This document shows, one piece after another, positions 4,836-62,875 of a DNA stretch of 64,000 nt. The number at the start of each line of letters is the position of its first letter. Position 1 is the stretch's first letter. Below the pieces are notes generated by a model. The model did no database searches and was not told where the DNA came from. It worked only from the letters and a program-made list of their open reading frames with translations. The translations under genes were made by a program, and so were the position numbers. The DNA is from Bacteroidetes bacterium UKL13-3 (lineage in GTDB: Bacteria; Bacteroidota; Bacteroidia; UKL13-3). The stretch covers positions 1,718,718 to 1,782,717 of the forward strand of contig CP012155.1 in NCBI GenBank assembly GCA_001602415.1. Reading direction: 5' to 3'.

Positions 4836-6143
4836 ATGAATAATGGCCGAATGGCGGAAAGTCCAGTTCGCATGTTCAAGTATTTACTTTTGAAAACAAT
4901 TTATACAATATCTGATGTTGATGTAGTTGAGCGTTCACGATACGATATGTCATTTAAATACTTTTTAGAAATGACACCAGAAGAGGAAGTAATAAATTCT
5001 AGTTCATTGACCAAGTTTAGGAAACTACGTTTAAAAGACACCGACTTGTTAGATTTATTAATAAACAAAACAGTCAGTATAGCAGTTGAAAAAGGCATCA
5101 TTCGTTCAAAGTCAATTATAGTAGATGCCACACATACGCTATCAAGATCAAATCCATTTTCAGCAATAGAAGTATTACGTGAACGCTCTAAGTTACTCAG
5201 GAAAGCGGTGTATTTGTTTGATGAGGAATGGAAAGAAAATATGCCACAAAAGAACATTGATAATGATTTGGAAAAGGAGTTAGCATATTGCAAAGAGTTA
5301 GAGCAACGAATAGAAAATGAACCAACTATTAGTTCAATACCTGGTGTAAAAGAAAAACTCAATTTACTAAAAGAAACGATAGAAGATACGCAAGAAAATT
5401 TCATCCTATCAAAAGATACTGATGCAAGAATTGGGCACAAATCAGCTGATAGCTCATTCTTTGGATACAAAACACATATAGCCATGACCGAAGAGCGCAT
5501 TATTACAGCAGCAGTAGTAACATCGGGTGAAAAAGGAGATGGGCCAGAGTTAACAAAACTTTTACAAATGAGTCAAGAAAATGGAATTGATGTGGATACC
5601 ATAATAGGCGATACCGCCTATTCAGGAAAAGAAAATCTTAAAATTACAACAGAGCAAAATATTAAAATAGTAGCAAGGCTAAATCCCTCAATCACACAAG
5701 GCACAAGAAAGGATGAAGATAAATTTGATTACAATAAAGATGCAGATATGTTTGTTTGCCCTGCTGGTCATATGGCATTAAAAAAGGCTCGTCAAGGCAC
5801 AAAAAATATTGGAAAAAACCAAGCAGTAACATACTACTTTGATACAGACAAATGTAAAACATGCCCTTTAAAAGAGGGTTGTTATAAAGAAGGAGCAAAA
5901 ACAAAAACCTATTCGTTAACAATTAAATCAGACCTACATCAAGAACAAACAGTCTTTCAAGAAACCGATTATTATAAAGAAAAATCAAAGCATCGTTATA
6001 AAATTGAAGCAAAAAATAGTGAGTTAAAAAACATACACGGATACGATAGAGCAATATCCTATGGCATTAGTAATATGCAAATGCAGGGTGCACTGGCAAT
6101 TTTTGCAGTCAACTTAAAAAGAATTATTAAATTAACAGAGTAA
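4836..6143 (+). CDS. IS1182/IS5-superfamily DDE transposase
   Basis: 435 aa. The N-terminal block FKYLLLKTIYTISDVDVVERSRYDMSFKYFLEM resembles the InsH-type N-terminal domain. C-terminal Cys cluster CPAGH...CKTCPLKEGCY and tail GALAIFAVNLKRIIKL are typical of IS1182-group transposases. Confidence 0.7.
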   Translation: MNNGRMAESPVRMFKYLLLKTIYTISDVDVVERSRYDMSFKYFLEMTPEEEVINSSSLTKFRKLRLKDTDLLDLLINKTVSIAVEKGIIRSKSIIVDATHTLSRSNPFSAIEVLRERSKLLRKAVYLFDEEWKENMPQKNIDNDLEKELAYCKELEQRIENEPTISSIPGVKEKLNLLKETIEDTQENFILSKDTDARIGHKSADSSFFGYKTHIAMTEERIITAAVVTSGEKGDGPELTKLLQMSQENGIDVDTIIGDTAYSGKENLKITTEQNIKIVARLNPSITQGTRKDEDKFDYNKDADMFVCPAGHMALKKARQGTKNIGKNQAVTYYFDTDKCKTCPLKEGCYKEGAKTKTYSLTIKSDLHQEQTVFQETDYYKEKSKHRYKIEAKNSELKNIHGYDRAISYGISNMQMQGALAIFAVNLKRIIKLTE

Positions 6144-6344: not shown

Positions 6345-7043
6345 TTAGTTGGAAGCTTTGATTTTTAACTTCTCTTTAAAAACTTTCTGAAACTTCTCCA
6401 ATTTTGGTTTTACTACAAACTGACAATAGGGTTGATCAACATTTTCGTTATAATAATTTTGGTGATAATCCTCCGCCTTAAAAAATTCAGTTAAAGGACT
6501 GATTTCAGTAACAATAGGATTCGGATATGCATGCGATGCATTCAACCCCTTTTTGTACTTTTCGGCTAATTCCTTTTGTATAGGTGTGTGATAATAAATG
6601 ACAGATCTGTATTGCGTGCCAACATCATTTCCTTGTCGATTAAGTGTTGTTGGATCGTGGCTTACCCAAAATGCTTGTAACAGTTCAGGATAGGTAATCA
6701 CTTTTGGGTCAAATACAATCTGACACACTTCTGCGTGTCCGGTAGTGCCATTGCAAACTTCTTTGTAAGTAGGATTTTTAACTGCACCTCCACTATAACC
6801 CGATGTTACAGATAGTACACCTTCTACTTGTTGGTATACGGCTTCTAGGCACCAAAAGCATCCCGCACCAAAAGTGGCAGTGTCAAAGTTGTGTGTTGTG
6901 TGTTGTTCTTCAATCATGTTGGTTGTGAGTTTAGGTACTGGGGTTACTGTACTTTCTGTGCACGAAAATATAGAAATACTCATCGTGTTAAATATGACAA
7001 ACGAAAGTATCGTATTCATTTGATTCATTGTTATTTTAAACAT
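6345..7043 (-). CDS. msrA: peptide methionine sulfoxide reductase MsrA, exported lipoprotein form
   Basis: GCFWCLEAVYQQVEGV...YHQNYYNEN core. N-terminal signal with lipobox Cys (ISIFSCTEST). Confidence 0.85.
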   Translation of the reverse strand: MFKITMNQMNTILSFVIFNTMSISIFSCTESTVTPVPKLTTNMIEEQHTTHNFDTATFGAGCFWCLEAVYQQVEGVLSVTSGYSGGAVKNPTYKEVCNGTTGHAEVCQIVFDPKVITYPELLQAFWVSHDPTTLNRQGNDVGTQYRSVIYYHTPIQKELAEKYKKGLNASHAYPNPIVTEISPLTEFFKAEDYHQNYYNENVDQPYCQFVVKPKLEKFQKVFKEKLKIKASN

Positions 7044-7113: not shown

Positions 7114-7662
7114 ATGAATAAACTATTGTTTTGTGCTTTGTTTTGTGCGTGTTTAAGTGCATCTGCCCAAACGTTTTCATTTAAAAGCAATGAAGGTAGC
7201 ATTTTTTTAATGAATGAAAGCCCCGGAGGTAAAGCAAGGGTGTATTATTTCCTTTCACCTGAATGTCCTTTGTGCCAGAGTTATTCACTCACTATTCGAA
7301 ATATATATGCTGAGTTTGCTAAACAAGGTATCGAAATGGTTGGTATTATTCCCGGAAATGATTTTTCTAACAAAGATATTTTAGAATACGAAATCAAATA
7401 TAAAATCCCTCTTATGTTGTTGCGTGACGAGCAATTAATGCTTGTTAAAAAATACAATGTTACCATAACACCCGAGGTGGTTCTGGTTAATACGCAAGGG
7501 AAAGTGATATACCAAGGAAGAATCGATAATTGGGCATATGAATTAGGAAAAAAGAGAAAAGTTATTACAGAATACAATCTTAAAGATGCTTTAACTTCAG
7601 TACTTTTAAACAAGCCTATTAGCGTCTCTAAAACAAAAGCGGTTGGGTGTTATATTGAGTAA
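7114..7662 (+). CDS. thioredoxin-fold redoxin (TlpA/AhpC-like), exported
   Basis: Signal peptide MNKLLFCALFCACLSASAQ. CxxC active site (SPECPLCQS). Divergent from msrA with a 43-70 bp intergenic gap. An alternative ATG lies at 7087. Confidence 0.6.
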   Translation: MNKLLFCALFCACLSASAQTFSFKSNEGSIFLMNESPGGKARVYYFLSPECPLCQSYSLTIRNIYAEFAKQGIEMVGIIPGNDFSNKDILEYEIKYKIPLMLLRDEQLMLVKKYNVTITPEVVLVNTQGKVIYQGRIDNWAYELGKKRKVITEYNLKDALTSVLLNKPISVSKTKAVGCYIE

Positions 7663-7797
7663 TGGGGAAATGTGCTGATGACAGGATGTGCAAATGTGCA
7701 GATTAGAATATTGGAAGATGTGTAAATAAATAAATGAAAGTGGATAGGATGCCTGAGCTTCTGCGCAGCAGAACGGCCGAAGGCACTCGTGCCGAGG

Positions 7798-7934
7798 CAA
7801 ACAGCAAACAGCAAACAGCAAACAGCAAACAGCAAACAGCAAACAGCAAACAGCAAACAGCAAACAGCAAACAGCAAACAGCAAACAGCAAACAGCAAAC
7901 AGCAAACAGCAAACAGCAAACAGCAAACAGCAAA
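7798..7934 (+). repeat. perfect heptanucleotide tandem repeat (CAAACAG) x ~19.6, ending 2 nt before the ATG at 7937
   Basis: Directly visible: 137 nt of uninterrupted CAAACAG units. The unit length is not a multiple of 3. All six-frame ORFs crossing it encode QTANSK/CCLLFAV repeats and are artifacts. Confidence 0.95.
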
Positions 7935-7936
7935 TA

Positions 7937-9304
7937 ATGAACAAAAAACTAATACTAATTTTCCTGATGGGCATACTAGCTGCTTGTTCTCAGAATAAGG
8001 GTAACAAGGATGTGCCTCCTGCTCAGGTTAAATTTGCCGAACATATCGCACCTATCATTCATCAGAATTGTACAAAATGTCATATTGAAGGTGAAGCAGG
8101 TCCATTTACGCTCATAACATATCACGATGTGGCCAAGCGTGGAAAGTTGATTAAGTATATGGTGAGTGAACGTATTATGCCGCCATGGCCTGCCGATGCA
8201 TCATACTCGCACTTTGCTGATGAGATGGTGTTGAGCGATGAACAAATTGAGTTGGTCAAACGATGGGTGGATGAAGGAATGTTACCCGGAGACACAGCAA
8301 ATTTGGAACAACCAACAGCTGTGTTAAATAAAGTTCATTTCGGTAAGCCTGATTTGGTGGTACCTGTTCCAAAAATTATACTTAAAGGAGATAACCAGGA
8401 TCGGTTTTTAGTTATGAAAATACCCTATGAGATTCCAAACGATACCTTCGTGAGAGCCATTGAATTTGTAGTAGGAAACAAACGATTGGTTCACCATGTT
8501 AACACACATTTGATTCAATTTGCTGATGGAAAGAAAAAAAATGTGAATGAAGGTAAAATGTATGTTGAACAAGACCAAGCCAACAGTCAAACCATTCATA
8601 AAGAGTTAGGTATTTTGCAAGACGATGGAAGCTACCCGCGCATGACACCCAGCGTGAGCAATTATTTACCTGGAGCTTTATTTAGCTTTTATCCTCAAGA
8701 AATAGGAGGGTATACCTTATCAAAAAAAGGAGCATTCTACTTGAATGATATGCATTTTGGTCCTTCACCCATTGATGCGGTTGATTCATCTTACTACAAT
8801 ATTTATTTCGGCACTGCACCACCCAAACGTCCGGTGAGTGAATTTCAAATGGGAACATTAGGGATAACACCTGTAGAGCCACAATTGATTGTTCCTCCCA
8901 ATGAAGTTAAAACGTTTCATATTAAGGCCACAATGCCAGATGATATTTCACTCATTAGTATCGTTCCTCACATGCATTTAATTGGTAAAAAATTCTGGTC
9001 CTATGCCATTAAACCAAGTGGCGACACCATTCCGCTTATCCGAATTAACAATTGGGATTTTAGGTGGCAATATTTTTATAAGTTTAAGAAGTTGTTGAAA
9101 ATACCCAAAGGAACCACCATTTATGTTGAAGGTGTTTTTGACAATACTGCAAGTAACCCCAATAATCCATTTTCTCCACCCCAAGAAATTAGGGAGCGCA
9201 ATGGCAGCATGAAAACCACAGATGAAATGTTTCAGCTCATTGTTACGTATGTTCCATATCAAAAAGGTGATGAGGCGTTTGATTTGGAGAATGCAAAGCG
9301 GTGA
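7937..9304 (+). CDS. lipoprotein with N-terminal c-type heme motif (PSCyt1-like) and C-terminal copper type-II ascorbate-dependent monooxygenase-like (PHM/DBH) domain
   Basis: Lipobox MNKKLILIFLMGILAACSQ. CTKCH heme-binding motif followed by ...IMPPWPAD...LVKRWVDEGM. His clusters HHVNTH and HMHLIGK spaced as in the CuH/CuM sites of PHM-like monooxygenases. Confidence 0.6.
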   Translation: MNKKLILIFLMGILAACSQNKGNKDVPPAQVKFAEHIAPIIHQNCTKCHIEGEAGPFTLITYHDVAKRGKLIKYMVSERIMPPWPADASYSHFADEMVLSDEQIELVKRWVDEGMLPGDTANLEQPTAVLNKVHFGKPDLVVPVPKIILKGDNQDRFLVMKIPYEIPNDTFVRAIEFVVGNKRLVHHVNTHLIQFADGKKKNVNEGKMYVEQDQANSQTIHKELGILQDDGSYPRMTPSVSNYLPGALFSFYPQEIGGYTLSKKGAFYLNDMHFGPSPIDAVDSSYYNIYFGTAPPKRPVSEFQMGTLGITPVEPQLIVPPNEVKTFHIKATMPDDISLISIVPHMHLIGKKFWSYAIKPSGDTIPLIRINNWDFRWQYFYKFKKLLKIPKGTTIYVEGVFDNTASNPNNPFSPPQEIRERNGSMKTTDEMFQLIVTYVPYQKGDEAFDLENAKR

Positions 9305-9361
9305 ACAAATTAACAGTTGAATCGGGTAACTTCAGACTAACTGATTCGACTGTTACTACTT

Positions 9362-10129
9362 TTATGCCTTCCTATGAATCACACTCGCAATGGGTTGCGC
9401 AGTTGGCATGATGGTAAGTTCGTTAATGTTTATATGCGGAGGGCGCGAAAGTGCAAACCAAATAGCTTCGGCAATATCTTGCGCTACCAAGTTTTCAAAT
9501 CCGGTATAAACAGTTTTAGCACGTTCGGCATCACCATGGAAACGTACAATGCTAAACTCAGTTTCTACGGCTCCTGGATGTATCGCTGTAACTTTTATAG
9601 GGTATTGCGCCAAATCAATTCGCATGGCTTTGTTTAATGCGTCAACTGCATGTTTGGTGGCACAGTATACATTTCCATTGGCATACACTTCTTTGCCTGC
9701 AATACTTCCAATATTAATAATATGACCTTTGCCATTTGCAATCATTAATGGCGTAACGTTTCGAGTTACATACAACAACCCTTTTACGTTGGTATCAATC
9801 ATTACATCCCAATCATCAATATCACCTTTTTCAATTGGCGCCAAACCACTTGCCAAACCCGCATTATTAATGAGTACTTCAATACCTTTCCAACCTTCAG
9901 GCAATTGCTCAATTGTTTGTGTAACATCCAATCTGTTTCTTACATCCAATATGCGTATTAAAGAGTTGCAGTTATACTGTTTATAAAGCGTATCGGCTAG
10001 CAATGCGAGTTTATCTTCCCTGCGGGCAATTAATAATAAATCAAATTCGTTGGCTGCTAAAATATGAGCAGTTGCCACGCCAATTCCGGCCGAAGCTCCT
10101 GTAATACATGCAATGCGTTTAGTTGACAT
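9362..10129 (-). CDS. SDR family NAD(P)-dependent oxidoreductase
   Basis: TGASAGIG Rossmann motif, NNAG, and a Y...K catalytic pair (YCATK). Confidence 0.85.
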   Translation of the reverse strand: MSTKRIACITGASAGIGVATAHILAANEFDLLLIARREDKLALLADTLYKQYNCNSLIRILDVRNRLDVTQTIEQLPEGWKGIEVLINNAGLASGLAPIEKGDIDDWDVMIDTNVKGLLYVTRNVTPLMIANGKGHIINIGSIAGKEVYANGNVYCATKHAVDALNKAMRIDLAQYPIKVTAIHPGAVETEFSIVRFHGDAERAKTVYTGFENLVAQDIAEAIWFALSRPPHININELTIMPTAQPIASVIHRKA

Positions 10130-10206
10130 GGTAATTTTTTTTGGTGGGTAAAAATAATAGAATATTTGAGTGGGTTGGTTATTTTTACAAGATTAAAAAT
10201 CGAATC

Positions 10207-10587
10207 ATGAATTATACTATCGAAAAAAATGATCAGTATTCGTTAATTAAAACCGACCTAACTGCTTTTAATAAAGAGACATGTGCTAAGCTTCGCGAGA
10301 AGGTATTGCACGAAGTTGCCAGTAGTAGCAAATATGTTATCGTAAATATTTCGGGTGTAAATGAATGTAATGCAGATGGCACTAGAGAGCTTATTCAATT
10401 AGGAGTTGATTTGCAAGAGAATGATGGATTGTTAATTTTAACACATGCCAATGATCAGTTTACCCGATTGTTTAACAAGGCAGATATTACTTTTATTCCG
10501 ACAGATGTTGAAGCTGTTGATTTTGTGTTTATGGATCAGTTGGAAAAACAGTTTTTAAATATGACGGACGATGATTTGAGCCTATGA
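10207..10587 (+). CDS. STAS domain protein (anti-sigma-factor antagonist-like)
   Basis: About 126 aa from MNYTIEKND. STAS-like topology (VIVNISGVNECNADGTRELIQL). Its stop overlaps the rnz start (ATGA). Confidence 0.55.
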   Translation: MNYTIEKNDQYSLIKTDLTAFNKETCAKLREKVLHEVASSSKYVIVNISGVNECNADGTRELIQLGVDLQENDGLLILTHANDQFTRLFNKADITFIPTDVEAVDFVFMDQLEKQFLNMTDDDLSL

Positions 10588-11501
10588 GTATTGAACTAAC
10601 GATTTTAGGCAACAGTTCGGCTACACCCACGCTTAATAGGTTTCCTTCGGCACAGTACCTCAATATGCTCGATCACCACATATTGATTGATTGTGGTGAG
10701 GGAACACAAATGCAGTTGCGTAAATACAAGATTAAAAAATCAAAACTGCATTATATTTTTATAAGCCATGTGCATGGCGATCACATACTCGGATTGCCGG
10801 GATTAATTTTTTCGATGAACCTAAACAGTAGGCTTGAACCCCTTCATATTTTTGGTCCGGCAAGCTTGTTTGAAATATTAGATATGTTTCTCAAACATTC
10901 AGATACACGTTTACGATTTGACATAGTTAAACACATCACAGATGATTCTAAACGGGAAGTTATTTTTGAAAACATGCTCATCAAGGTAACGTCATTCCCT
11001 TTATATCATAGAATTCCCACCACAGGTTTTATTTTTGAAGAACAATCTCGCTTACGTAAGTTAAATATTGAAGCGTGCGAACGTTACCACATACCGTTTA
11101 CTTTTTATAATGATATTAAACGAGGGAAGGATTTTATTAGTGCAGATGGGAAAACAGAAATTAGTAATGAAAAATTGACTTATGATTCAGGTCTACCCAT
11201 AAGATATGCTTATTGTTCTGATACAATCTATGATAAAAGGGTTATTAATGAGGTACGTGATGTAGATTGGTTATATCATGAATCAACTTTTTTGCATGAA
11301 AAACTTGAACGAGCCATTGAAACCAAACATACAACAGCCAAACAAGCCGGAATGGTTGCCAAAGAGGCTAATGTAAAAAACTTACTCATTGGGCACTTTT
11401 CATCCCGATACGAAGACTTAAACGAGCTATTGGAGGAGGCCAAAACAGAATTTCCACAAACAGAAATTGCCGAAGAGGGCATTACGTTTGTGTTCGAATA
11501 A
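10584..11501 (+). CDS. rnz: ribonuclease Z (tRNA 3' endonuclease)
   Basis: Metallo-beta-lactamase motif SHVHGDH; length 305 aa; ILGNSSATPT N-terminus typical of RNase Z. Confidence 0.85.
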   Translation: MSIELTILGNSSATPTLNRFPSAQYLNMLDHHILIDCGEGTQMQLRKYKIKKSKLHYIFISHVHGDHILGLPGLIFSMNLNSRLEPLHIFGPASLFEILDMFLKHSDTRLRFDIVKHITDDSKREVIFENMLIKVTSFPLYHRIPTTGFIFEEQSRLRKLNIEACERYHIPFTFYNDIKRGKDFISADGKTEISNEKLTYDSGLPIRYAYCSDTIYDKRVINEVRDVDWLYHESTFLHEKLERAIETKHTTAKQAGMVAKEANVKNLLIGHFSSRYEDLNELLEEAKTEFPQTEIAEEGITFVFE

Positions 11502-11518
11502 GAATAAAGGTTTTCCGG

Positions 11519-14407
11519 TTATGCAGTTAACTTCTCTTTTAGGTATTTTCCGGTATAGCTTTCTTTTACTTTAATTAACTCTTCGGGTGTTCCTTCAAAC
11601 ACCAAATTTCCACCTTTATCGCCCGCTTCCGGACCTAAATCTACAACCCAATCGGCACATTTGATTACATCCATATTGTGTTCAATAACAATAATGGAAT
11701 TGCCTTGGTTAATTAATGCATCAAAGGATGCAAGTAGTTTTTTGATATCGTTGAAGTGCAACCCCGTAGTAGGTTCATCAAAAATAAACAATACATGATC
11801 ACTGTTTTTTCCACGACCTAAAAATGAAGCTAATTTTACACGTTGTGCTTCACCTCCTGATAGTGTATTGGATGATTGTCCGAGTTGAACATAGCCCAAT
11901 CCAACATCTTGTAATGGTTTAATTTTATTGGTGATGGAAGTTTCTTCTGTAAAAAAAGCAATGGCCTCATCTACGCTCATGTTCAGAACATCGCTAATAT
12001 GTTTGCCGTGCACTTTTACGTCCAAAATTTCTTCTTTAAAACGGGCACCTTTGCATTCTTCACATGGCAAATGTATGTCAGCCATAAACTGCATTTCAAT
12101 AGTTACCTCGCCTTCGCCTTGACAGGTTTCACAACGTCCGCCATCTACATTAAACGAAAAATGCTGGGGTTTATAGCCTCGGCTTTTTGAGATGGCTTGT
12201 GATGCATAAAGTTCACGGATGGTATCGTAGGCTTTTATATAGGTAATTGGATTTGAGCGAGATGATTTTCCGATAGGATTTTGATCAACCATCTCAATTT
12301 GTTTAATGCTTTTTACATTTCCTTCCAAACTATCATGAGCTCCCGTTTTTTCACCATTGTATGTGCCTAATTGTTTTTGTAATGCTGGATATAAAATAGT
12401 TTTAACCAAGGATGTTTTACCCGAACCAGAAACACCTGTAACCACTGTTAATACATGTAATGGAAAACGAGCATCTACACCTTTTAAGTTATGCTGCCGA
12501 GCTCCCTTGATTGTGATGAAATCACTCGCTTTTCTGCGTTTTTCAGGAACAGGAACCTCTTCTTTTCCACTTAAATATTTTCCTGTAAGACTGTTTTTGT
12601 TCTGCAATACTTCTTTAAAAGTACCTTGTGCAATGAGCTGTCCTCCGTTTACTCCAGCCTCAGGTCCTATATCAATTAATTGGTCGGCAACTTTCATGAG
12701 GTCTTCATCATGTTCAACAACAACAACTGTATTGCCAATATCACGAAGTTTCTCCAATACGCCAATGAGTTTTTCGGTATCGCGCGAGTGCAATCCGATA
12801 CTTGGCTCATCCAAAATATACAACGAACCAACAAGGCTGCTTCCTAGTGAAGTGGCTAGGTTTATGCGTTGCGATTCACCTCCCGAAAGTGTGTTTGATA
12901 AACGATTGAGTGATAAATATCCCAGACCTACATTTTGCAAAAAACTTAACCGTGAAGAGATTTCGGTGAGAATACGTTTGGCAATGGAAGCGTGTTGTTC
13001 GCTCAAGCTTAAAGAGCTAAAGTAAATGACCGCTTCGTCAATACTCATTAACAAAATTTCGGATAAGGAACGAAAATCATTCATGCTACCTTTCTTGATG
13101 GCAGTATTTACAATGCGAACATAGTTGGCATCTTTACGCAAGCGAGTTCCTTTGCAATCTGGGCAAGTAGTTTTTCCGCGGTATCTCGCCAACATTACGC
13201 GGTACTGAATTTTGTATGTTTGACGTTCTAAGTCTTTAAAAAAGCCGTTTATTCCTTCCCATGTTGCATCGCCTTGCCACAAAAAATCTTTTTGAGCGGT
13301 GGTTAATTCGTGATACGCTTTGTGAATGGGGAATTTGTTTTTAACACTGAGTTTAATGAAATGAGCTTTCCATTCACTCATTTTTTCACCTTTCCAAGGC
13401 ACAATTGCATCGGCATAAATGGAGATACTTTTATCGGGCACAACCAAATCTTCATCAATACCAATTACCGAACCAAATCCCTCACAGGTTTTACAAGCTC
13501 CGTATGGATTGTTGAAACTAAAAAAGTTTACGTTCGGTTCCTCGAAGGTTATTCCATCCAACTCAAATTTATTGCTAAAATACTCTTGCGTGTATGAGCC
13601 ATCTTCTTGCACAATGTGTATGGAACATTCCCCGTGACCTTCAAAAAAGGCTGTTTGAACAGAGTCGGCTAATCTGTTTTGAAAATCTTCATCATTGTGA
13701 ATGATAGCAAAACGGTCAATCAATAAGAATAAATTGAGATTTGAGATTTGAGAATTAGGATTTGTGCTATCTGATTTTTTTGTTTTCGGATTTTGAATTT
13801 CCGATTTCGTATTTTCTTCTAGGTACTCTTCAATATCAACAGGTTTTTCGTCTATTAATAACCTAGAGAATCCATTCTGCAAATAAATTTCGAGTTGCTT
13901 TTTTAAGTCATTTTCGGGAGTTATGGGAACAACCAACAACACACGGGTATCTTCCACTAAGGCCAATAATTTATTCACTACACCTTCAACAGTATCACGT
14001 TTAACTTCTTTACCCGAAACAGGAGAGAAGGTAACACCTGCGCGGGCAAACAAAAGTTTTAGGTAATCATAAATTTCGGTGGTGGTAGCAACTGTTGAGC
14101 GAGGGTTGCGTGTATTTACCTTTTGCTCGATGGCAATTGCTGGCGAGATACCGTGAATATAATCAACATCGGGTTTGTTCATCTTGCCCAAAAACTGACG
14201 CGCATAAGCCGATAAACTTTCTACATATCGCCTTTGTCCTTCGGCATACAGCGTATCAAAAACCAATGATGATTTACCCGAGCCAGAAACGCCTGTTACT
14301 ACAGTGAGCTGATTGCGAGGAATGGTAACATCTATATTTTTTAGGTTGTGCACTCGTGCACCTTTGATAACGATGTCTTTGGTTTTTTGTTCGCTCTTAA
14401 ATTTCAT
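11519..14407 (-). CDS. uvrA: excinuclease ABC subunit A
   Basis: Two ABC ATPase modules (GVSGSGKSSL twice), zinc-finger Cys clusters and LSGGE signatures. Likely start MKFKSEQ (14407); an upstream ATG lies at 14431. Confidence 0.9.
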   Translation of the reverse strand: MKFKSEQKTKDIVIKGARVHNLKNIDVTIPRNQLTVVTGVSGSGKSSLVFDTLYAEGQRRYVESLSAYARQFLGKMNKPDVDYIHGISPAIAIEQKVNTRNPRSTVATTTEIYDYLKLLFARAGVTFSPVSGKEVKRDTVEGVVNKLLALVEDTRVLLVVPITPENDLKKQLEIYLQNGFSRLLIDEKPVDIEEYLEENTKSEIQNPKTKKSDSTNPNSQISNLNLFLLIDRFAIIHNDEDFQNRLADSVQTAFFEGHGECSIHIVQEDGSYTQEYFSNKFELDGITFEEPNVNFFSFNNPYGACKTCEGFGSVIGIDEDLVVPDKSISIYADAIVPWKGEKMSEWKAHFIKLSVKNKFPIHKAYHELTTAQKDFLWQGDATWEGINGFFKDLERQTYKIQYRVMLARYRGKTTCPDCKGTRLRKDANYVRIVNTAIKKGSMNDFRSLSEILLMSIDEAVIYFSSLSLSEQHASIAKRILTEISSRLSFLQNVGLGYLSLNRLSNTLSGGESQRINLATSLGSSLVGSLYILDEPSIGLHSRDTEKLIGVLEKLRDIGNTVVVVEHDEDLMKVADQLIDIGPEAGVNGGQLIAQGTFKEVLQNKNSLTGKYLSGKEEVPVPEKRRKASDFITIKGARQHNLKGVDARFPLHVLTVVTGVSGSGKTSLVKTILYPALQKQLGTYNGEKTGAHDSLEGNVKSIKQIEMVDQNPIGKSSRSNPITYIKAYDTIRELYASQAISKSRGYKPQHFSFNVDGGRCETCQGEGEVTIEMQFMADIHLPCEECKGARFKEEILDVKVHGKHISDVLNMSVDEAIAFFTEETSITNKIKPLQDVGLGYVQLGQSSNTLSGGEAQRVKLASFLGRGKNSDHVLFIFDEPTTGLHFNDIKKLLASFDALINQGNSIIVIEHNMDVIKCADWVVDLGPEAGDKGGNLVFEGTPEELIKVKESYTGKYLKEKLTA

Positions 14408-14694
14408 TCGTGCAGTAAATATACTCTTCAAAGAAAAGGTTTTGAACGCTATTTAGTTTTACTGTTTGTGCACGGTGAACAATTTTTGTTTAGAATAAAT
14501 GCTAGCAATATTTAGGCAGAGTAGGCGCTAACGATACTATTCGATAATTTAAGAAAAAATTAAGTTTTATATTTTCTGTTTTTTATCATACATTCGAATC
14601 ACCAATAAAACCATTACCCTAAACAACCACACGCTTATAGACACAATTCTACACTAATTTTTTCTCTGAGTTCAACCTTTTAATAGTACAACCT

Positions 14695-29589: not shown

Positions 29590-29888
29590 ATCTATGTTGA
29601 AACGGCCGCAAAGATAAGGTTTAAGGCGGAGATTTTAATTAACGCAGGAGAAGGAAGTGCAAATGTGCAGATGTGGTGATTTGTTGGTTTGATGATGAGT
29701 GAACAAGAATGATGTGCAGATTTGTAAATGTACAGATTTAGGATATTTGCCTAGGGTGGCTGAAATAATATTCCCGCAGTCAACCGACCCAAATCTCCAA
29801 TTCCAAAATCTGAAATCTCAATTCTTAAATACATCTTCTGTGTGATTATGTTTTTGTTTGTGTACTTTCGGATAAAATTTAACACACT

Positions 29889-30815
29889 ATGATATCAACT
29901 TCTATTGTCGTCCTATTAATTCTTGTTGTTATTGGACTTTCCCTTGTAACTGTTCAGCAAGGAACCATTTCAGTTATCACGATGTTTGGTAAATACCGCA
30001 GGATTTTATACCCGGGTTTGAGTATGAAAATACCGTTTTTGGAAATTGTGTTTAAACGCATTTCCATTCAAAATCGATCCATTGAATTGGATTTTCAGGC
30101 CATCACACAGGATCAAGCCAATGTGTATTTTAAGGCCATGTTATTGTATTCGGTTGTTGATAATAAAGAGGAAACACTCAAAAATGTGGCATTCAAGTTT
30201 GTGAATGATCGTGATTTTATGACAGCCTTAATTCGCACCATTGAAGGATCTATTCGTGGATTTGTAGCTACCAAAAGACAATCAGAAATTTTGGCTTTGC
30301 GAAAAGAAATAGTTGAATCGGTTAAAGAAAGTATTGATCATGGACTAGAAACATGGGGTTATCATTTGCTCGATTTGCAACTTAACGACATCACTTTTGA
30401 TGAAGCCATCACCAAATCAATGGCGCAAGTGGTTGCTTCATCTAACTTAAAAGCCGCTGCTGAAAATGAAGGCCAAGCATTACTTATTACCAAAACAAAA
30501 GCGGCTGAGGCAGAAGGAAACGCCATTAAAATTTCGGCTGAGGCGGAAAAAATTGCCGCACAATTGCGCGGTCAAGGAGTTGCTTTGTTCCGTAAAGAAG
30601 TGGCTATTGGTATGAGTGAAGCTGCTAAGGAAATGCAAACAGCCGATTTAGATGCTTCGTTTTTATTGTTTAGCATGTGGACAGAAGCGGTGAAAAACTT
30701 TGCTGCCGATGGAAACGGAAATGTAATTTTCCTTGATGGGTCGCCTGATGGAATGAACAATACTCTTAAACAAATGATGGCCATGAATGCGAAAGATATG
30801 GCCGGTAAAAAATAA
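29889..30815 (+). CDS. SPFH/band-7 (stomatin/HflC-like) domain protein
   Basis: N-terminal TM, SPFH core, and a C-terminal Ala/Glu/Lys-rich coiled coil. Confidence 0.8.
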   Translation: MISTSIVVLLILVVIGLSLVTVQQGTISVITMFGKYRRILYPGLSMKIPFLEIVFKRISIQNRSIELDFQAITQDQANVYFKAMLLYSVVDNKEETLKNVAFKFVNDRDFMTALIRTIEGSIRGFVATKRQSEILALRKEIVESVKESIDHGLETWGYHLLDLQLNDITFDEAITKSMAQVVASSNLKAAAENEGQALLITKTKAAEAEGNAIKISAEAEKIAAQLRGQGVALFRKEVAIGMSEAAKEMQTADLDASFLLFSMWTEAVKNFAADGNGNVIFLDGSPDGMNNTLKQMMAMNAKDMAGKK

Positions 30816-60283: not shown

Positions 60284-62875
60284 TTATTTTCCGAGTTCAA
60301 TCAGGTTTACCATTAACCGATAAGCTCCGGGCACGCCTGCGGGGAGTTCACGAAAAAACACCAATCCTGAGTAGATGAAGTTCCCTTTACCGTGTTTAGC
60401 TATAATCAATGCACCATTATCCGGATTGCCTTTAGGAGATACTCCGCCTATTGTCATTTCAAAAGGGTCGGTCATGCTGATAGGAGCCACATAATTGCTG
60501 TCCCATTCACCAGCATGGTAGATGCTTCGTTCCTGAATCCAACCTTCAAAATCTTTCTCCGTGATTTTGTTCGGAGAGTTTAATATGGGATGATTGGGCA
60601 ATAAGAAATCAACCTTGGCTGTTTCATCCGTTATACGGTTGCGTGTAATTTTAAACTTATACGGACCAATATCACTGCTTAGCGGACCTGCCCAGCTATT
60701 GGTATTGTATTGCACAATGAGGTTACCGCCACTGCTTACATACTCCATTAATTTTTGCTTGAAGGACGGAAGTTTTTCTTTGGTGTTGTATGCGCGCACT
60801 CCTGTGAGTATGGCATCATACTGACTTAGATTTTCGCTTGCCAGTTTATCATCGCTTAAGGTAATCACTTCATATCCCAACTGACTTAAGCATGCTTGCA
60901 CTTCATCACCTGCACCCGGAATGTACCCAATTCGTTTACTTTTTTTGGCCAAATCTAACTTCACCAGTTTTACTTCCGCTTCCGGGAATAAGGTTTGAAT
61001 CGGAATATGATCGTATTTAATTTCTTTGATGCCTTTGGTGTAGGTTTGGCCATCGACTATTGCAGATAGGTTGATGAATTGATTAGTTGATTGGGTTGGT
61101 GCATCGATGTAAAATACAAATTCTTTTTCTTGACCTTTCTTATCTAGTTGGAAATTGTAAGCCAATGGGGAAATATTGAATGAGGTTAATTTAGCCAAAG
61201 CAAATTGCGGATTGATTTTGTCTTCTTCAACGACAATCTTGGTATTTAATTGGTTGGGTGAGGTAAACTTCAATATGCCACTTACACTGTCTTTACCTGA
61301 TTTTACAGTAACCTTCAATGTTTTCTGCTTACCGCTTCCGTCAAACACTAACACATCTTCTGCCACATTAATCATCACCGGTGGGGTAATGACTACCGGG
61401 CGGTATTGTTCTCCTTTTTCGGGGTCGACCCATTTGTACTGGAATTGAAACGGTATGAGTTGATCGTGGAGTAAAAGGGTTCCAGAACTATTAAAAAACA
61501 CCTCAGGTGAACTTTTTGAAAACAATTCACTGGTCTCAAACATGCTGTTTTTAATAGGTTTTTGAAGGTAGTAAGGTTGAGATATTGTATTATCTTTTCC
61601 ATATACGGAGTTAAAAGAGCATGATATTAATTCATTTTTTTTGAGCGTGATGTTAAGGGTAGTATCAAAGGGATTAAAACTATTCACCAAATTTCCAGCA
61701 AATTGAAGGGACTTTATTTTACTTTTTTCATTTTTTCGGGAAACGATTGCCAGCGATAATTTTTGTTTACTCCCCAATGAAATGTTCGGTTCCGATACTG
61801 TTGCATCAATAACAAATCCTTTGAGGTTTGAGTAGAGATTGTTTGCCAATATCATCTTATGAATATACACAATACCATTCATTTTTTGCAACTCGGTCAT
61901 TACTTTGCTGAAACTCTCAACACTTTGGTTGGGGTTTTCAACCTTATACTCTTTGATGATTTTGGTAATCATATTACCGACTTTTGCACCTCCTACGGTC
62001 CGTTTCCAACTAAAATCAATTCCGTCAAAAATGTCTTTCAATCCGGCTGTATCGCCCTTAACCGGTTTAAAGTATTCGAAATTTTCTCCCCGTTGTTTGG
62101 CACTTCCAAATCCCTGGCTTTTGTGCATACTGCGGCTTTCTGCTGCTATTTCGCCATAACTTTTTCCTAATAATGGGTTGTATCCACCCACATCCAATTT
62201 GATGAGTTTGCTTAAATCGGCATTCGGATTAAAGTAACGTGCGGTGCTGTTGTAAAAGAGTCTGCGGGTTTTCCATACGCTAACATATTGCAATTGTTCA
62301 GGGAATCGGTTTGGATCAGCAGCTGCATCAAACGCCTCTTCCGCTAAAATAGCAGAGGTGGTGTGATGGCCATGTCCGCCACTGCCATCGGTTGCAAAAC
62401 GGGTAATGATAATATCGGGACGGAAGTTGCGGATTACCCAAACCATATCGCTCAGAATAGAATCTTTGTTCCATTTTTGTAAGGTCTCCTCAGGTGATTT
62501 GCTGAAGCCAAAATCGTAGGCACGGGTAAAAAACTGCTCACCACCATCTATTCTACGGGCAGCTAGTAACTCCTGTGTGCGAATAACACCCAATTCAATG
62601 CCTTGTTCGGGACCAATGAGGTTTTGTCCACCATCACCACGGGTAAGGCTTAAATAGCCGGTACGTAAACATTTTTCGTTGGCCAAATAAGCAATGAGTC
62701 GTGTGTTTTCATCATCGGGATGTGCTGCAATGTATAATACCGAACCAACAGTGTTTAGCTTTTTAAACTGCAATAATATCTCACTGGAAGTATAGGAGCG
62801 TGGAGGCTGCGCGTTAGTAATGAAGAATGAAGAATGAAGAATGAAGAATAGAAATAAGACAATTCGTTTGAGCAT
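60284..62875 (-). CDS. LmbE/PIG-L-family deacetylase with large C-terminal (ThuA/GATase1-like) domain, secreted
   Basis: Signal peptide; PIG-L motif AHPDDE and the HGHHT Zn-ligand region; 863 aa. Confidence 0.7.
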   Translation of the reverse strand: MLKRIVLFLFFILHSSFFITNAQPPRSYTSSEILLQFKKLNTVGSVLYIAAHPDDENTRLIAYLANEKCLRTGYLSLTRGDGGQNLIGPEQGIELGVIRTQELLAARRIDGGEQFFTRAYDFGFSKSPEETLQKWNKDSILSDMVWVIRNFRPDIIITRFATDGSGGHGHHTTSAILAEEAFDAAADPNRFPEQLQYVSVWKTRRLFYNSTARYFNPNADLSKLIKLDVGGYNPLLGKSYGEIAAESRSMHKSQGFGSAKQRGENFEYFKPVKGDTAGLKDIFDGIDFSWKRTVGGAKVGNMITKIIKEYKVENPNQSVESFSKVMTELQKMNGIVYIHKMILANNLYSNLKGFVIDATVSEPNISLGSKQKLSLAIVSRKNEKSKIKSLQFAGNLVNSFNPFDTTLNITLKKNELISCSFNSVYGKDNTISQPYYLQKPIKNSMFETSELFSKSSPEVFFNSSGTLLLHDQLIPFQFQYKWVDPEKGEQYRPVVITPPVMINVAEDVLVFDGSGKQKTLKVTVKSGKDSVSGILKFTSPNQLNTKIVVEEDKINPQFALAKLTSFNISPLAYNFQLDKKGQEKEFVFYIDAPTQSTNQFINLSAIVDGQTYTKGIKEIKYDHIPIQTLFPEAEVKLVKLDLAKKSKRIGYIPGAGDEVQACLSQLGYEVITLSDDKLASENLSQYDAILTGVRAYNTKEKLPSFKQKLMEYVSSGGNLIVQYNTNSWAGPLSSDIGPYKFKITRNRITDETAKVDFLLPNHPILNSPNKITEKDFEGWIQERSIYHAGEWDSNYVAPISMTDPFEMTIGGVSPKGNPDNGALIIAKHGKGNFIYSGLVFFRELPAGVPGAYRLMVNLIELGK
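62819..62850 (-). repeat. heptanucleotide tandem repeat (AATGAAG on plus, CTTCATT on coding strand) x 4.5 inside the signal-peptide codons
   Basis: Directly visible: aatgaagaatgaagaatgaagaatgaagaata. Encodes the hydrophobic core FILHSSFFI of the signal peptide. Confidence 0.85.

Follow-up and report, generated by a model that had tools for sequence, protein, structure and literature searches.

A perfect CAAACAG heptanucleotide array abutting the start codon of a lipoprotein gene in the lake bacterium Bacteroidetes bacterium UKL13-3

To our knowledge, contingency loci built from simple sequence repeats (SSRs) are known almost entirely from host-adapted pathogens, and phase variation in Bacteroidota is usually ascribed to invertible promoters. 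Heptamers of the short tandemly repeated repetitive (STRR) type were reportedly described from cyanobacteria by Mazel et al. in 1990. This paper will focus on a perfect (CAAACAG)n array located directly upstream of a lipoprotein gene in a stretch of 64,000 nucleotides, hereafter the window (contig CP012155.1, positions 1,718,718 to 1,782,717), of Bacteroidetes bacterium UKL13-3, the genome of which is a complete 3.24-Mb PacBio/HGAP assembly (PMC5248499). Since the tract is hypervariable, lies right at a start codon of a free-living lake bacterium and is sampled in many public metagenomes, it provides a concrete and testable case for the question of whether such repeats have a regulatory role in environmental Bacteroidota or arise as neutral by-products when heptamers slip. 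The array is probably best understood as a replication-slippage microsatellite in the transcribed leader of a redoxin-lipoprotein operon, serving as a near-neutral spacer free of structure, with slippage as the putative mechanism and near-neutrality of length suggested by modelling.

For Haemophilus influenzae hmw1A and hmw2A, heptamer tracts of 13-38 copies were described which modulate expression (Dawid et al. 1999, as summarised in PMC2651432). The array resembles these tracts in being a perfect 7-nt array upstream of a coding region with a copy number that varies between strains. The hmw tracts modulate expression rather than simply shifting a reading frame. However, they are located about 70-100 bp upstream in a mapped promoter region with two transcription starts, whereas the tract in UKL13-3 abuts the start codon and has no recognisable promoter. 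In addition, the hmw genes code for surface adhesins of a host-adapted pathogen, in contrast to the free-living bacterium studied here. In Moraxella catarrhalis, AGAT repeats in the 5' untranslated region of uspA2 are present in 6-23 copies, with an experimentally determined optimum of expression at 18 (Attia and Hansen 2006, cited in PMC4679880). Likenesses are the leader position of a tandem repeat, between promoter and start codon, and the strain-dependent copy number; the uspA2 unit, however, is a tetranucleotide and the gene codes for a serum-resistance surface protein.

Heptamers are the commonest class of long SSRs in prokaryotes (PMC4679880). Intergenic heptamer sets (TAACTGA and others) just upstream of start codons were identified in Beggiatoaceae, Cyanobacteria and several Bacteroidetes (MacGregor 2015, PMC4679880), with up to 43 copies in Bacteroidetes and with close relatives of array-bearing Bacteroidetes that lack the arrays. 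For the TAACTGA repeats of Beggiatoaceae, which include those of the orange Guaymas Basin 'Candidatus Maribeggiatoa' genome (BOGUAY), binding of a protein that regulates translation was proposed. As in these sets, the heptamers of UKL13-3 are in forward orientation a few nucleotides from the start, the spacers of relatives are shorter, and the lengths change in 7-nt steps. However, the published sets recur at many loci per genome, whereas CAAACAG, a different unit, is present at one site in the window. Prokaryotic long simple sequence repeats (LSSRs; Mrazek et al. 2007) are likewise characterised by a lineage-specific excess of mostly intergenic 5-11-nt repeats, which was ascribed to polymerase slippage. 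LSSR and STRR are descriptive classes without a defined function. As far as we found, freshwater Bacteroidota like UKL13-3 have not been described among the LSSR lineages.

The array and its copy number in different assemblies

With Tandem Repeats Finder (TRF), the array was identified as 138 nt of period 7 with 19.7 copies, 100% matches, 0% indels and a score of 276 (Table 1). Direct reading gave 19 full CAAACAG units (7798-7930), followed by CAAA, TA and the ATG at 7937, the array being intergenic and on the same strand as the lipoprotein gene. A preliminary description of this stretch as a perfect heptamer array ending 2 nt before a lipoprotein start codon was thus confirmed. The dimer CAAACAGCAAACAG was present in 18 overlapping matches in the window, compared to 0.08 expected from shuffled sequences, and all of them are located within the array; elsewhere in the window no CAAACAG dimer was found, and the remaining arrays are built from other units. 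The array contains no stop codon in any forward frame, and its RNA is free of U, contains more C than G and is essentially unpaired in the predicted fold (z-score of +1.5 against shuffles). The ATG at 7937 is a sensible start, since it opens a lipoprotein signal sequence, MNKKLILIFLMGILAAC, in which a charged n-region and a hydrophobic core precede the lipobox cysteine, and since orthologues begin likewise, for example with MNHKLLLILICTLAAC.

Contigs for comparison were found by exact-sequence look-up of the lipoprotein and of neighbouring genes. In independent assemblies of this species, whose flanks and protein sequence are identical, the array was uninterrupted in every case examined and was present in 4-19 copies (4, 5, 8, 10, 11, 14, 15, 16, 17 and 19), the window having 19 full copies. 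Contigs from the Joint Genome Institute (JGI) contained 5, 8, 11, 14, 15, 16 (four contigs) and 17 (four contigs) copies, contigs from ENA 4 and 15 copies (two contigs each), and a second haplotype 10 (L001 and L097) and about 14 (P0010). An NCBI metagenome-assembled genome (MAG) has a run of N within the array, and Logan contigs terminate inside it. The tract is very probably length-polymorphic, and some values could stem from short-read assembly. For the ongoing expansion and contraction proposed earlier, the 4-19 pure copies on identical flanks speak in favour, but some of the counts may result from assembly collapse. A metagenome scan with the left junction (GTGCCGAGG plus two units) gave zero matches, the locus of this species being missing from that collection.

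The three frame classes were represented, over about 20 independent contigs, by about 3 (n = 0 mod 3), 8 (n = 1 mod 3) and 9 (n = 2 mod 3) contigs. A frame constraint, corresponding to a translated repeat, was considered for the first five contigs, which were all of the class n = 1 mod 3, and was rejected as a bias of the look-up. An exact look-up of the 455-residue protein misses the contigs with n = 2 mod 3, because there the gene is annotated together with an upstream open reading frame (uORF) as one fused product. Look-ups via neighbouring genes are free of this bias and revealed all three classes, so that a strict frame constraint is absent.

In the second haplotype (L001 and L097, compared with window positions 7664-12304), gatB is located directly 5' of the spacer and replaces msrA and the redoxin gene, so that the redoxin partner gene is missing from this position. 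Compared to the window, the sequence is 99.91% identical 3' of the tract, 86.7% identical in the spacer and unrelated upstream, with the breakpoint precisely at the upstream gene's stop codon.

As a practical consequence, the tract breaks assemblies and leads to false proteins of 490-518 residues and a truncated one of 445 residues for one gene of 455 residues. In the protein records P0001-P0015, this gene is recorded with 445, 455, 464, 490, 495, 497, 504, 511, 514 and 518 residues, depending on copy number and gene caller, the longer forms bearing (ANSKQQT)n extensions. GenBank AMS26910.1 (Bacteroidetes bacterium UKL13-3) is the 445-residue version, for which an internal Met was taken as the start.

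Single contigs differ at the junctions. In L113, AAG replaces the ATG start (CAAATAAAG), and the right junction of L087, CAATAATG, has one A fewer 3' of the array; each is either a sequencing error or a rare variant. In the MEGAHIT contig L100 (1-330), three CAAACAG units with the lipoprotein gene directly follow a coding sequence similar to DUF1566 (ending in DWYLPSYDELALIYKNLKE). L100 was not counted, since it is probably a chimeric k-mer join and not a real third upstream context.

Leader position, start-codon accessibility and origin

Between positions 7000 and 9500, no terminator-like site was found, and sigma-70 promoter-like matches were at the level of shuffled sequences. The Bacteroidota -7 box (TAnnTTTG, at most 1 mismatch) was not identified between 7602 and 7937, while near-matches to it are present upstream of the redoxin gene. 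A promoter cannot be accommodated 3' of the array, because the array ends 2 nt from the ATG. Since there is no room for a downstream promoter, no -7 box in the spacer and no terminator-like site, it is almost certain, as judged from the sequence, that transcription includes the array as intercistronic leader RNA. The array is located neither inside the open reading frame (ORF) of the lipoprotein nor between promoter elements. A switch operating by promoter-to-start spacing, as suggested in the preliminary description, is not credible for an array that abuts the ATG behind a spacer without a Bacteroidota -7 box.

For the comparison with relatives, 80 orthologous loci from Bacteroidota MAGs were used. 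In nearly all of the loci examined, the redoxin gene ends 0-30 nt 5' of the lipoprotein gene (for example in L007-L018) or overlaps with it. This points to a conserved, tightly packed pair of genes which is probably a co-transcribed operon. In UKL13-3, in contrast, the two genes are separated by a spacer of 275 nt with further repetitive parts, and an expanded spacer is confined among these loci to this species and two relatives (L005 and L006; 89% protein identity). In L006, the GC-rich element is also present and precedes precisely two CAAACAG units (CAAACAGCAAACAG), which are located about 100 nt 5' of the start codon. L005 has a degenerate GAGGCAAAAAGCAAAACAGTAAACA version, GAGG CAAAAAG CAAAACAG TAAACA, directly 5' of the ATG. 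In the other orthologues, no comparable heptamer array was found upstream of the gene, and a comparable array is lacking at identities of 89% and below. Since the orthologues are without the array and L006 has two units only, the long array is, by this comparison, a recent and species-specific expansion of a small two-unit seed.

In Bacteroidia, translation initiation was shown to be tuned by mRNA structure and upstream A residues and not by Shine-Dalgarno pairing (PMC6847099). The energy required to open the region from -20 to +15 around the start codon was computed for synthetic leaders with n = 0-30. It was 11.5 kcal/mol at n = 0, where the hairpins of the GC-rich element would adjoin the start codon, 6.9 at n = 1, 4.0 at n = 2 and 3.5 at n = 3, and remained flat at 3.3-3.5 kcal/mol for n = 4 to 30 (3.4 at n = 30). 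For the real start at 7937, an opening energy of 3.0 kcal/mol was obtained, compared to a median of 7.5 kcal/mol; this corresponds to the 8th percentile of 36 long ORFs of the window, the starts of which were taken simply as the first ATG. According to this model, about three units suffice for an open leader, and 4-19 copies should be equivalent in predicted accessibility. In the model, accessibility is independent of length from three units on, which speaks against an effect of length.

When the window and the relatives were analysed together by TRF (573 kb), periods of 7, 14 and 21 accounted for 39 of the 104 best non-overlapping arrays. In the relatives, many arrays of these periods were identified, with differing units, in 5' and 3' intergenic positions and with up to 17 copies. 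Together with the published arrays of up to 43 copies (PMC4679880), this shows that the statement of long heptamer tracts being uncommon in Bacteroidota was too strong. The intergenic DNA of this lineage seems to be generally prone to the formation of tandem arrays. In size of unit (within 1-11 nt), in length beyond chance (18 dimers against 0.08 expected) and in its lineage, with an excess of 5-11-nt repeats in which heptamers are prominent (39/104), the tract agrees with the definition of LSSRs. It is best filed in the known class of intergenic heptanucleotide LSSRs, with a frame-dependent effect through a putative uORF being a possibility.

In many related species, tandem repeats are also present in the intergenic DNA 3' of the lipoprotein gene, which is a hot spot of repeats in several of them. 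Repeats 3' of the stop codon are located at 4323-4442 in L024, 4385-4465 in L030 and 4370-4751 in L038, and also in L027, L029, L036 and L037; they have periods of 7, 14, 18, 20, 21 or 44 and unrelated units.

Readings of the length variation

In the reading that we favour, a GC-rich hairpin element would have been inserted into an originally very short spacer, and a two-unit seed at the 3' edge of this element would have expanded in this species only. Gains and losses of whole units may continue and would keep the array perfectly pure. The resulting A/C-rich, unstructured stretch of mRNA would hold the hairpins away from a start site without a Shine-Dalgarno sequence. Beyond about three units, gain or loss would be nearly neutral for initiation, so that the copy number could drift over 4-19 and through all frame classes.

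Several observations weigh against this reading. The counts of 4, 11 and 14 equal lengths expected from assembly collapse (k = 29/33, 77 and 99), so that the polymorphism may in part be an artefact. The ATGTGCA tract and the hairpins are kept in two haplotypes with different upstream genes, and this retention of the spacer hints at some function, possibly a promoter of an unrecognisable type. In addition, an AUG at 7734 is accessible (4.0 kcal/mol, 17th percentile of the window ORFs), and length could act through the reading frame.

In the preliminary description, the array was proposed to be a slipped-strand contingency switch. The tract shares with contingency loci an uninterrupted repeat of hypermutable length and, with the caveat on assembly, differences of whole units between strains; it is prone to slippage, polymorphic and abuts the start. 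However, an effect of promoter spacing is at odds with its position, a dependence on length is at odds with the predicted accessibility, and the gene is of a class atypical of contingency loci. The lipoprotein contains a CxxCH heme-c motif, a weak match to cytochrome c551 at the N-terminus and a Cu2_monoox_C domain; a sequence search revealed no relative of solved structure. By these motifs, the downstream gene codes for a putative heme/copper-type lipoprotein of a redox operon and is not a typical contingency target. It falls outside the classes that are usually phase-variable, namely surface antigens, adhesins, lipopolysaccharide or capsule modification, restriction-modification and receptors, a target of such a class being a usual but not an obligatory feature of SSR contingency loci. 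Any regulatory effect of the array would probably be quantitative or mediated by the uORF, and not an on/off switch based on promoter spacing.

A quantitative effect could take the form of a graded rheostat, in which the length of the leader alters the yield or stability of the mRNA and expression changes smoothly with copy number. The effect could be exerted by the distance from a promoter in the spacer or from a stabilising hairpin, or by loading of Rho on C-rich, G-poor and unstructured RNA, to which the composition of the array and its lack of structure would be suited. The unit length and the range of copies match the hmw tracts with 13-38 copies (PMC2651432), the position in the 5' leader is like that of uspA2 (PMC4679880), and the motifs of the spacer are kept in both haplotypes. 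However, no promoter motif was recognised in the spacer, the predicted accessibility is flat for n of at least 3, the gene does not belong with those for adhesins or serum resistance, and no orthologue contains a comparable tract. We consider a rheostat, by any of these routes, to be unlikely.

The sole length-sensitive logic that was found is a possible one and resides in the putative uORF, the frame of which is set by the copy number mod 3 and which passes through the hairpin element and the complete array, the latter being read as (ANSKQQT)n. With n = 1 mod 3, the TAA stop of the uORF overlaps the ATG of the gene as TAATG. With n = 2 mod 3, uORF and gene share one frame, and gene callers report fused products of 490, 497, 504, 511 or 518 residues; with n = 0 mod 3, the uORF runs on into the gene and terminates after 59 nt of it. 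If ribosomes starting at the AUG at 7734 crossed the array, a translational contingency switch with three states would result. Coupling of termination and reinitiation at TAATG would give the ON state, an N-terminal extension of about 35-63 residues, longer with increasing n, would bury the lipoprotein signal peptide, and the out-of-frame read-in of 59 nt would occlude the start of the gene. Such a switch would be of a kind not yet described, and lake populations would hold all three states simultaneously.

Consistent with this proposal, the start of the uORF is accessible, as given above, the window, the second haplotype and L006 each have an ORF that is opened by an AUG and runs into the hairpin element in one and the same frame, and all three frame classes are present among the assemblies, as expected of a switching population. 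Stray AUGs near the starts of Bacteroidia genes are counter-selected, which implies that they can be used (PMC6847099). However, the uORF peptide is not conserved, 7 of the 9 codon differences between the window and L006 being non-synonymous, and an ORF of this kind necessarily arises from any AUG 5' of a stop-free repeat. The ORF of L006 already ends some 100 nt short of the gene. Moreover, initiation could take place independently in every frame class at the start of the gene itself, which is even more accessible than that of the uORF. The three-state switch is judged to be unlikely, but is the main rival of the reading that we favour.

It was also considered that the array is real, with a length that is fixed or exceeds the reads, and that the differences in count are products of short-read assembly. 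In a de Bruijn assembly, a perfect repeat longer than k shrinks to a length of k-1 to k+5, and the length of the array is 7n+5. For k values of 33, 55, 77, 99 and 127, which we take to be those used with metaSPAdes at JGI, collapse predicts n = 4, 7, 11, 14 and 18. The JGI lake series was assembled with metaSPAdes (PMC10871203), and the JGI samples were assigned to this series by the range of IMG identifiers and the names of the MAGs. For MEGAHIT with default settings, n = 3, 4, 5, 8, 11, 14, 17 and 20 are predicted. The comparison with these predicted lengths covered the copy numbers of the metagenome contigs.

The counts of 4, 11 and 14 fit these predictions, 17 copies are the longest array that can be spanned by a 127-mer, and contigs break or hold N-gaps at the array. 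However, one metaSPAdes pipeline gave counts of 5, 8, 15 and 16, none of which collapse would yield at the k values of this pipeline. Nor would collapse yield the 15 copies of the k141 MEGAHIT contigs, or the 10 copies of a k87 contig at k = 67 and k = 77, the two cases checked. Moreover, differing counts are found in each of the two haplotypes (10 and about 14 in one, 5-19 in the other). A fixed length is considered to be very improbable.

That the array constitutes binding sites for an RNA-binding protein (ribosomal protein S1, a cold-shock protein or similar) regulating translation is, by analogy with the BOGUAY TAACTGA sets, which are likewise in forward orientation a few nucleotides from the start (PMC4679880), conceivable but highly doubtful: at least four CAAACAG units occur in more than 120 unrelated metagenome contigs, in about 16 of the 80 examined in forward orientation and no more than 60 nt 5' of the start of an ORF, but these contigs span 21-71% GC and probably include eukaryotes, the unit is present at only one site in the window, and the arrays of the window and of the relatives use many units, so that no recurrence as in a regulon is seen.

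The spacer, the gene pair and other repeats of the window

The features of the locus are listed in Table 1.

Table 1. Features of the redoxin-lipoprotein locus, in window positions
Feature	Position	Strand	Basis or remark
ResA-like thiol-disulfide oxidoreductase gene (Redoxin/AhpC-TSA fold)	7114..7662	+	domain matches
Degenerate period-8 tract ATGTGCAA ATGTGCAG ATTAGAAT ATTGGAAG ATGTGTAA ATAAATAA	7667..7733	+	contains the ATGTGCA motif
Putative uORF, 67 codons at n = 19, reading hairpin element and whole array as (ANSKQQT)n	7734..7937	+	computed
GC-rich element with two small hairpins, array adjoining its 3' edge	7752..7796	+	comparison with L006
Hairpin 1, TTCTGC-GCA-GCAGAA	7759-7773	+	
Hairpin 2, GGCAC-TC-GTGCC	7782-7793	+	
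Perfect heptanucleotide array, (CAAACAG)19 plus partial units	7797..7934	+	TRF, direct reading
Lipoprotein gene, 455 amino acids	7937..9304	+	lipobox LAAC, CxxCH, Cu2_monoox_C; start backed by orthologues

The ATGTGCA direct repeat at 7686/7694, which had been placed in a putative promoter region, is real and is part of the degenerate period-8 tract. With 9 occurrences against 14.3 expected, ATGTGCA is not enriched over the window, and the spacer gave no recognisable promoter motif. As an enriched motif, both ATGTGCA and AATGTGCAGATT were ruled out over the whole window, close copies being confined to two intergenic regions. In the second of these, a 21-nt near-copy (95% match) of 7683-7703 is located at 29652-29672. 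The region 29650-29830 has a layout like that of the spacer, with a period-8 GTGCAAAT/ATGTGCAG tract, a GC-richer stretch and degenerate heptamers (CAAATCT x5.7), and is located 5' of the ORF 29889-30815.

Hairpin 1 of the GC-rich element shows one compensatory pair change between the window and the sister species L006. A stable structure in the element was rejected, since its fold is no better than that of shuffled sequences (z = -0.3) and a single compensatory pair is too little. The element is also not a dispersed repeat, since neither the window nor the relatives, outside the orthologous positions, contained a second copy. For the region 7400-8200, a search of Rfam at a permissive E-value gave only noise well below the gathering score.

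Upstream of the redoxin gene, msrA is located on the minus strand, preceded by an insertion sequence transposase gene. The latter, at 4836-6143 just 5' of msrA, codes for a DDE transposase (DUF772 and DDE_Tnp_1_6, IS5/IS1182-like). Short-read contigs of the same species begin about 190 nt past msrA and were presumably broken at this transposase repeat.

A second perfect heptamer tract, (AATGAAG)4.4, was identified at 62819-62849. It reads CTTCATT on the coding strand of the gene 60284-62875 (minus strand), which codes for an 863-residue PIG-L/LmbE-type deacetylase, and spans codons 8-18 or thereabouts in the signal-peptide region (MLKRIVLFLFFILHSSFFITNAQ). A change by one unit would shift the reading frame of this gene, which makes the tract a better-placed candidate for classical phase variation than the CAAACAG array. 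The exact 863-residue product was found on 4 contigs, an exact-protein look-up being uninformative on variation of the tract; a look-up via a neighbouring gene for variants of the tract found nothing.

Two degenerate period-7 tracts, TTGAGAT x4.4 and TTTCGGA x4.4, are located at 13734-13814 within uvrA (11519-14431, minus strand) and encode a low-complexity insert of about KSEIQNPKTKKSDSTNPNSQISNLN. Here, a housekeeping gene appears to have taken up heptamer-derived sequence in frame.

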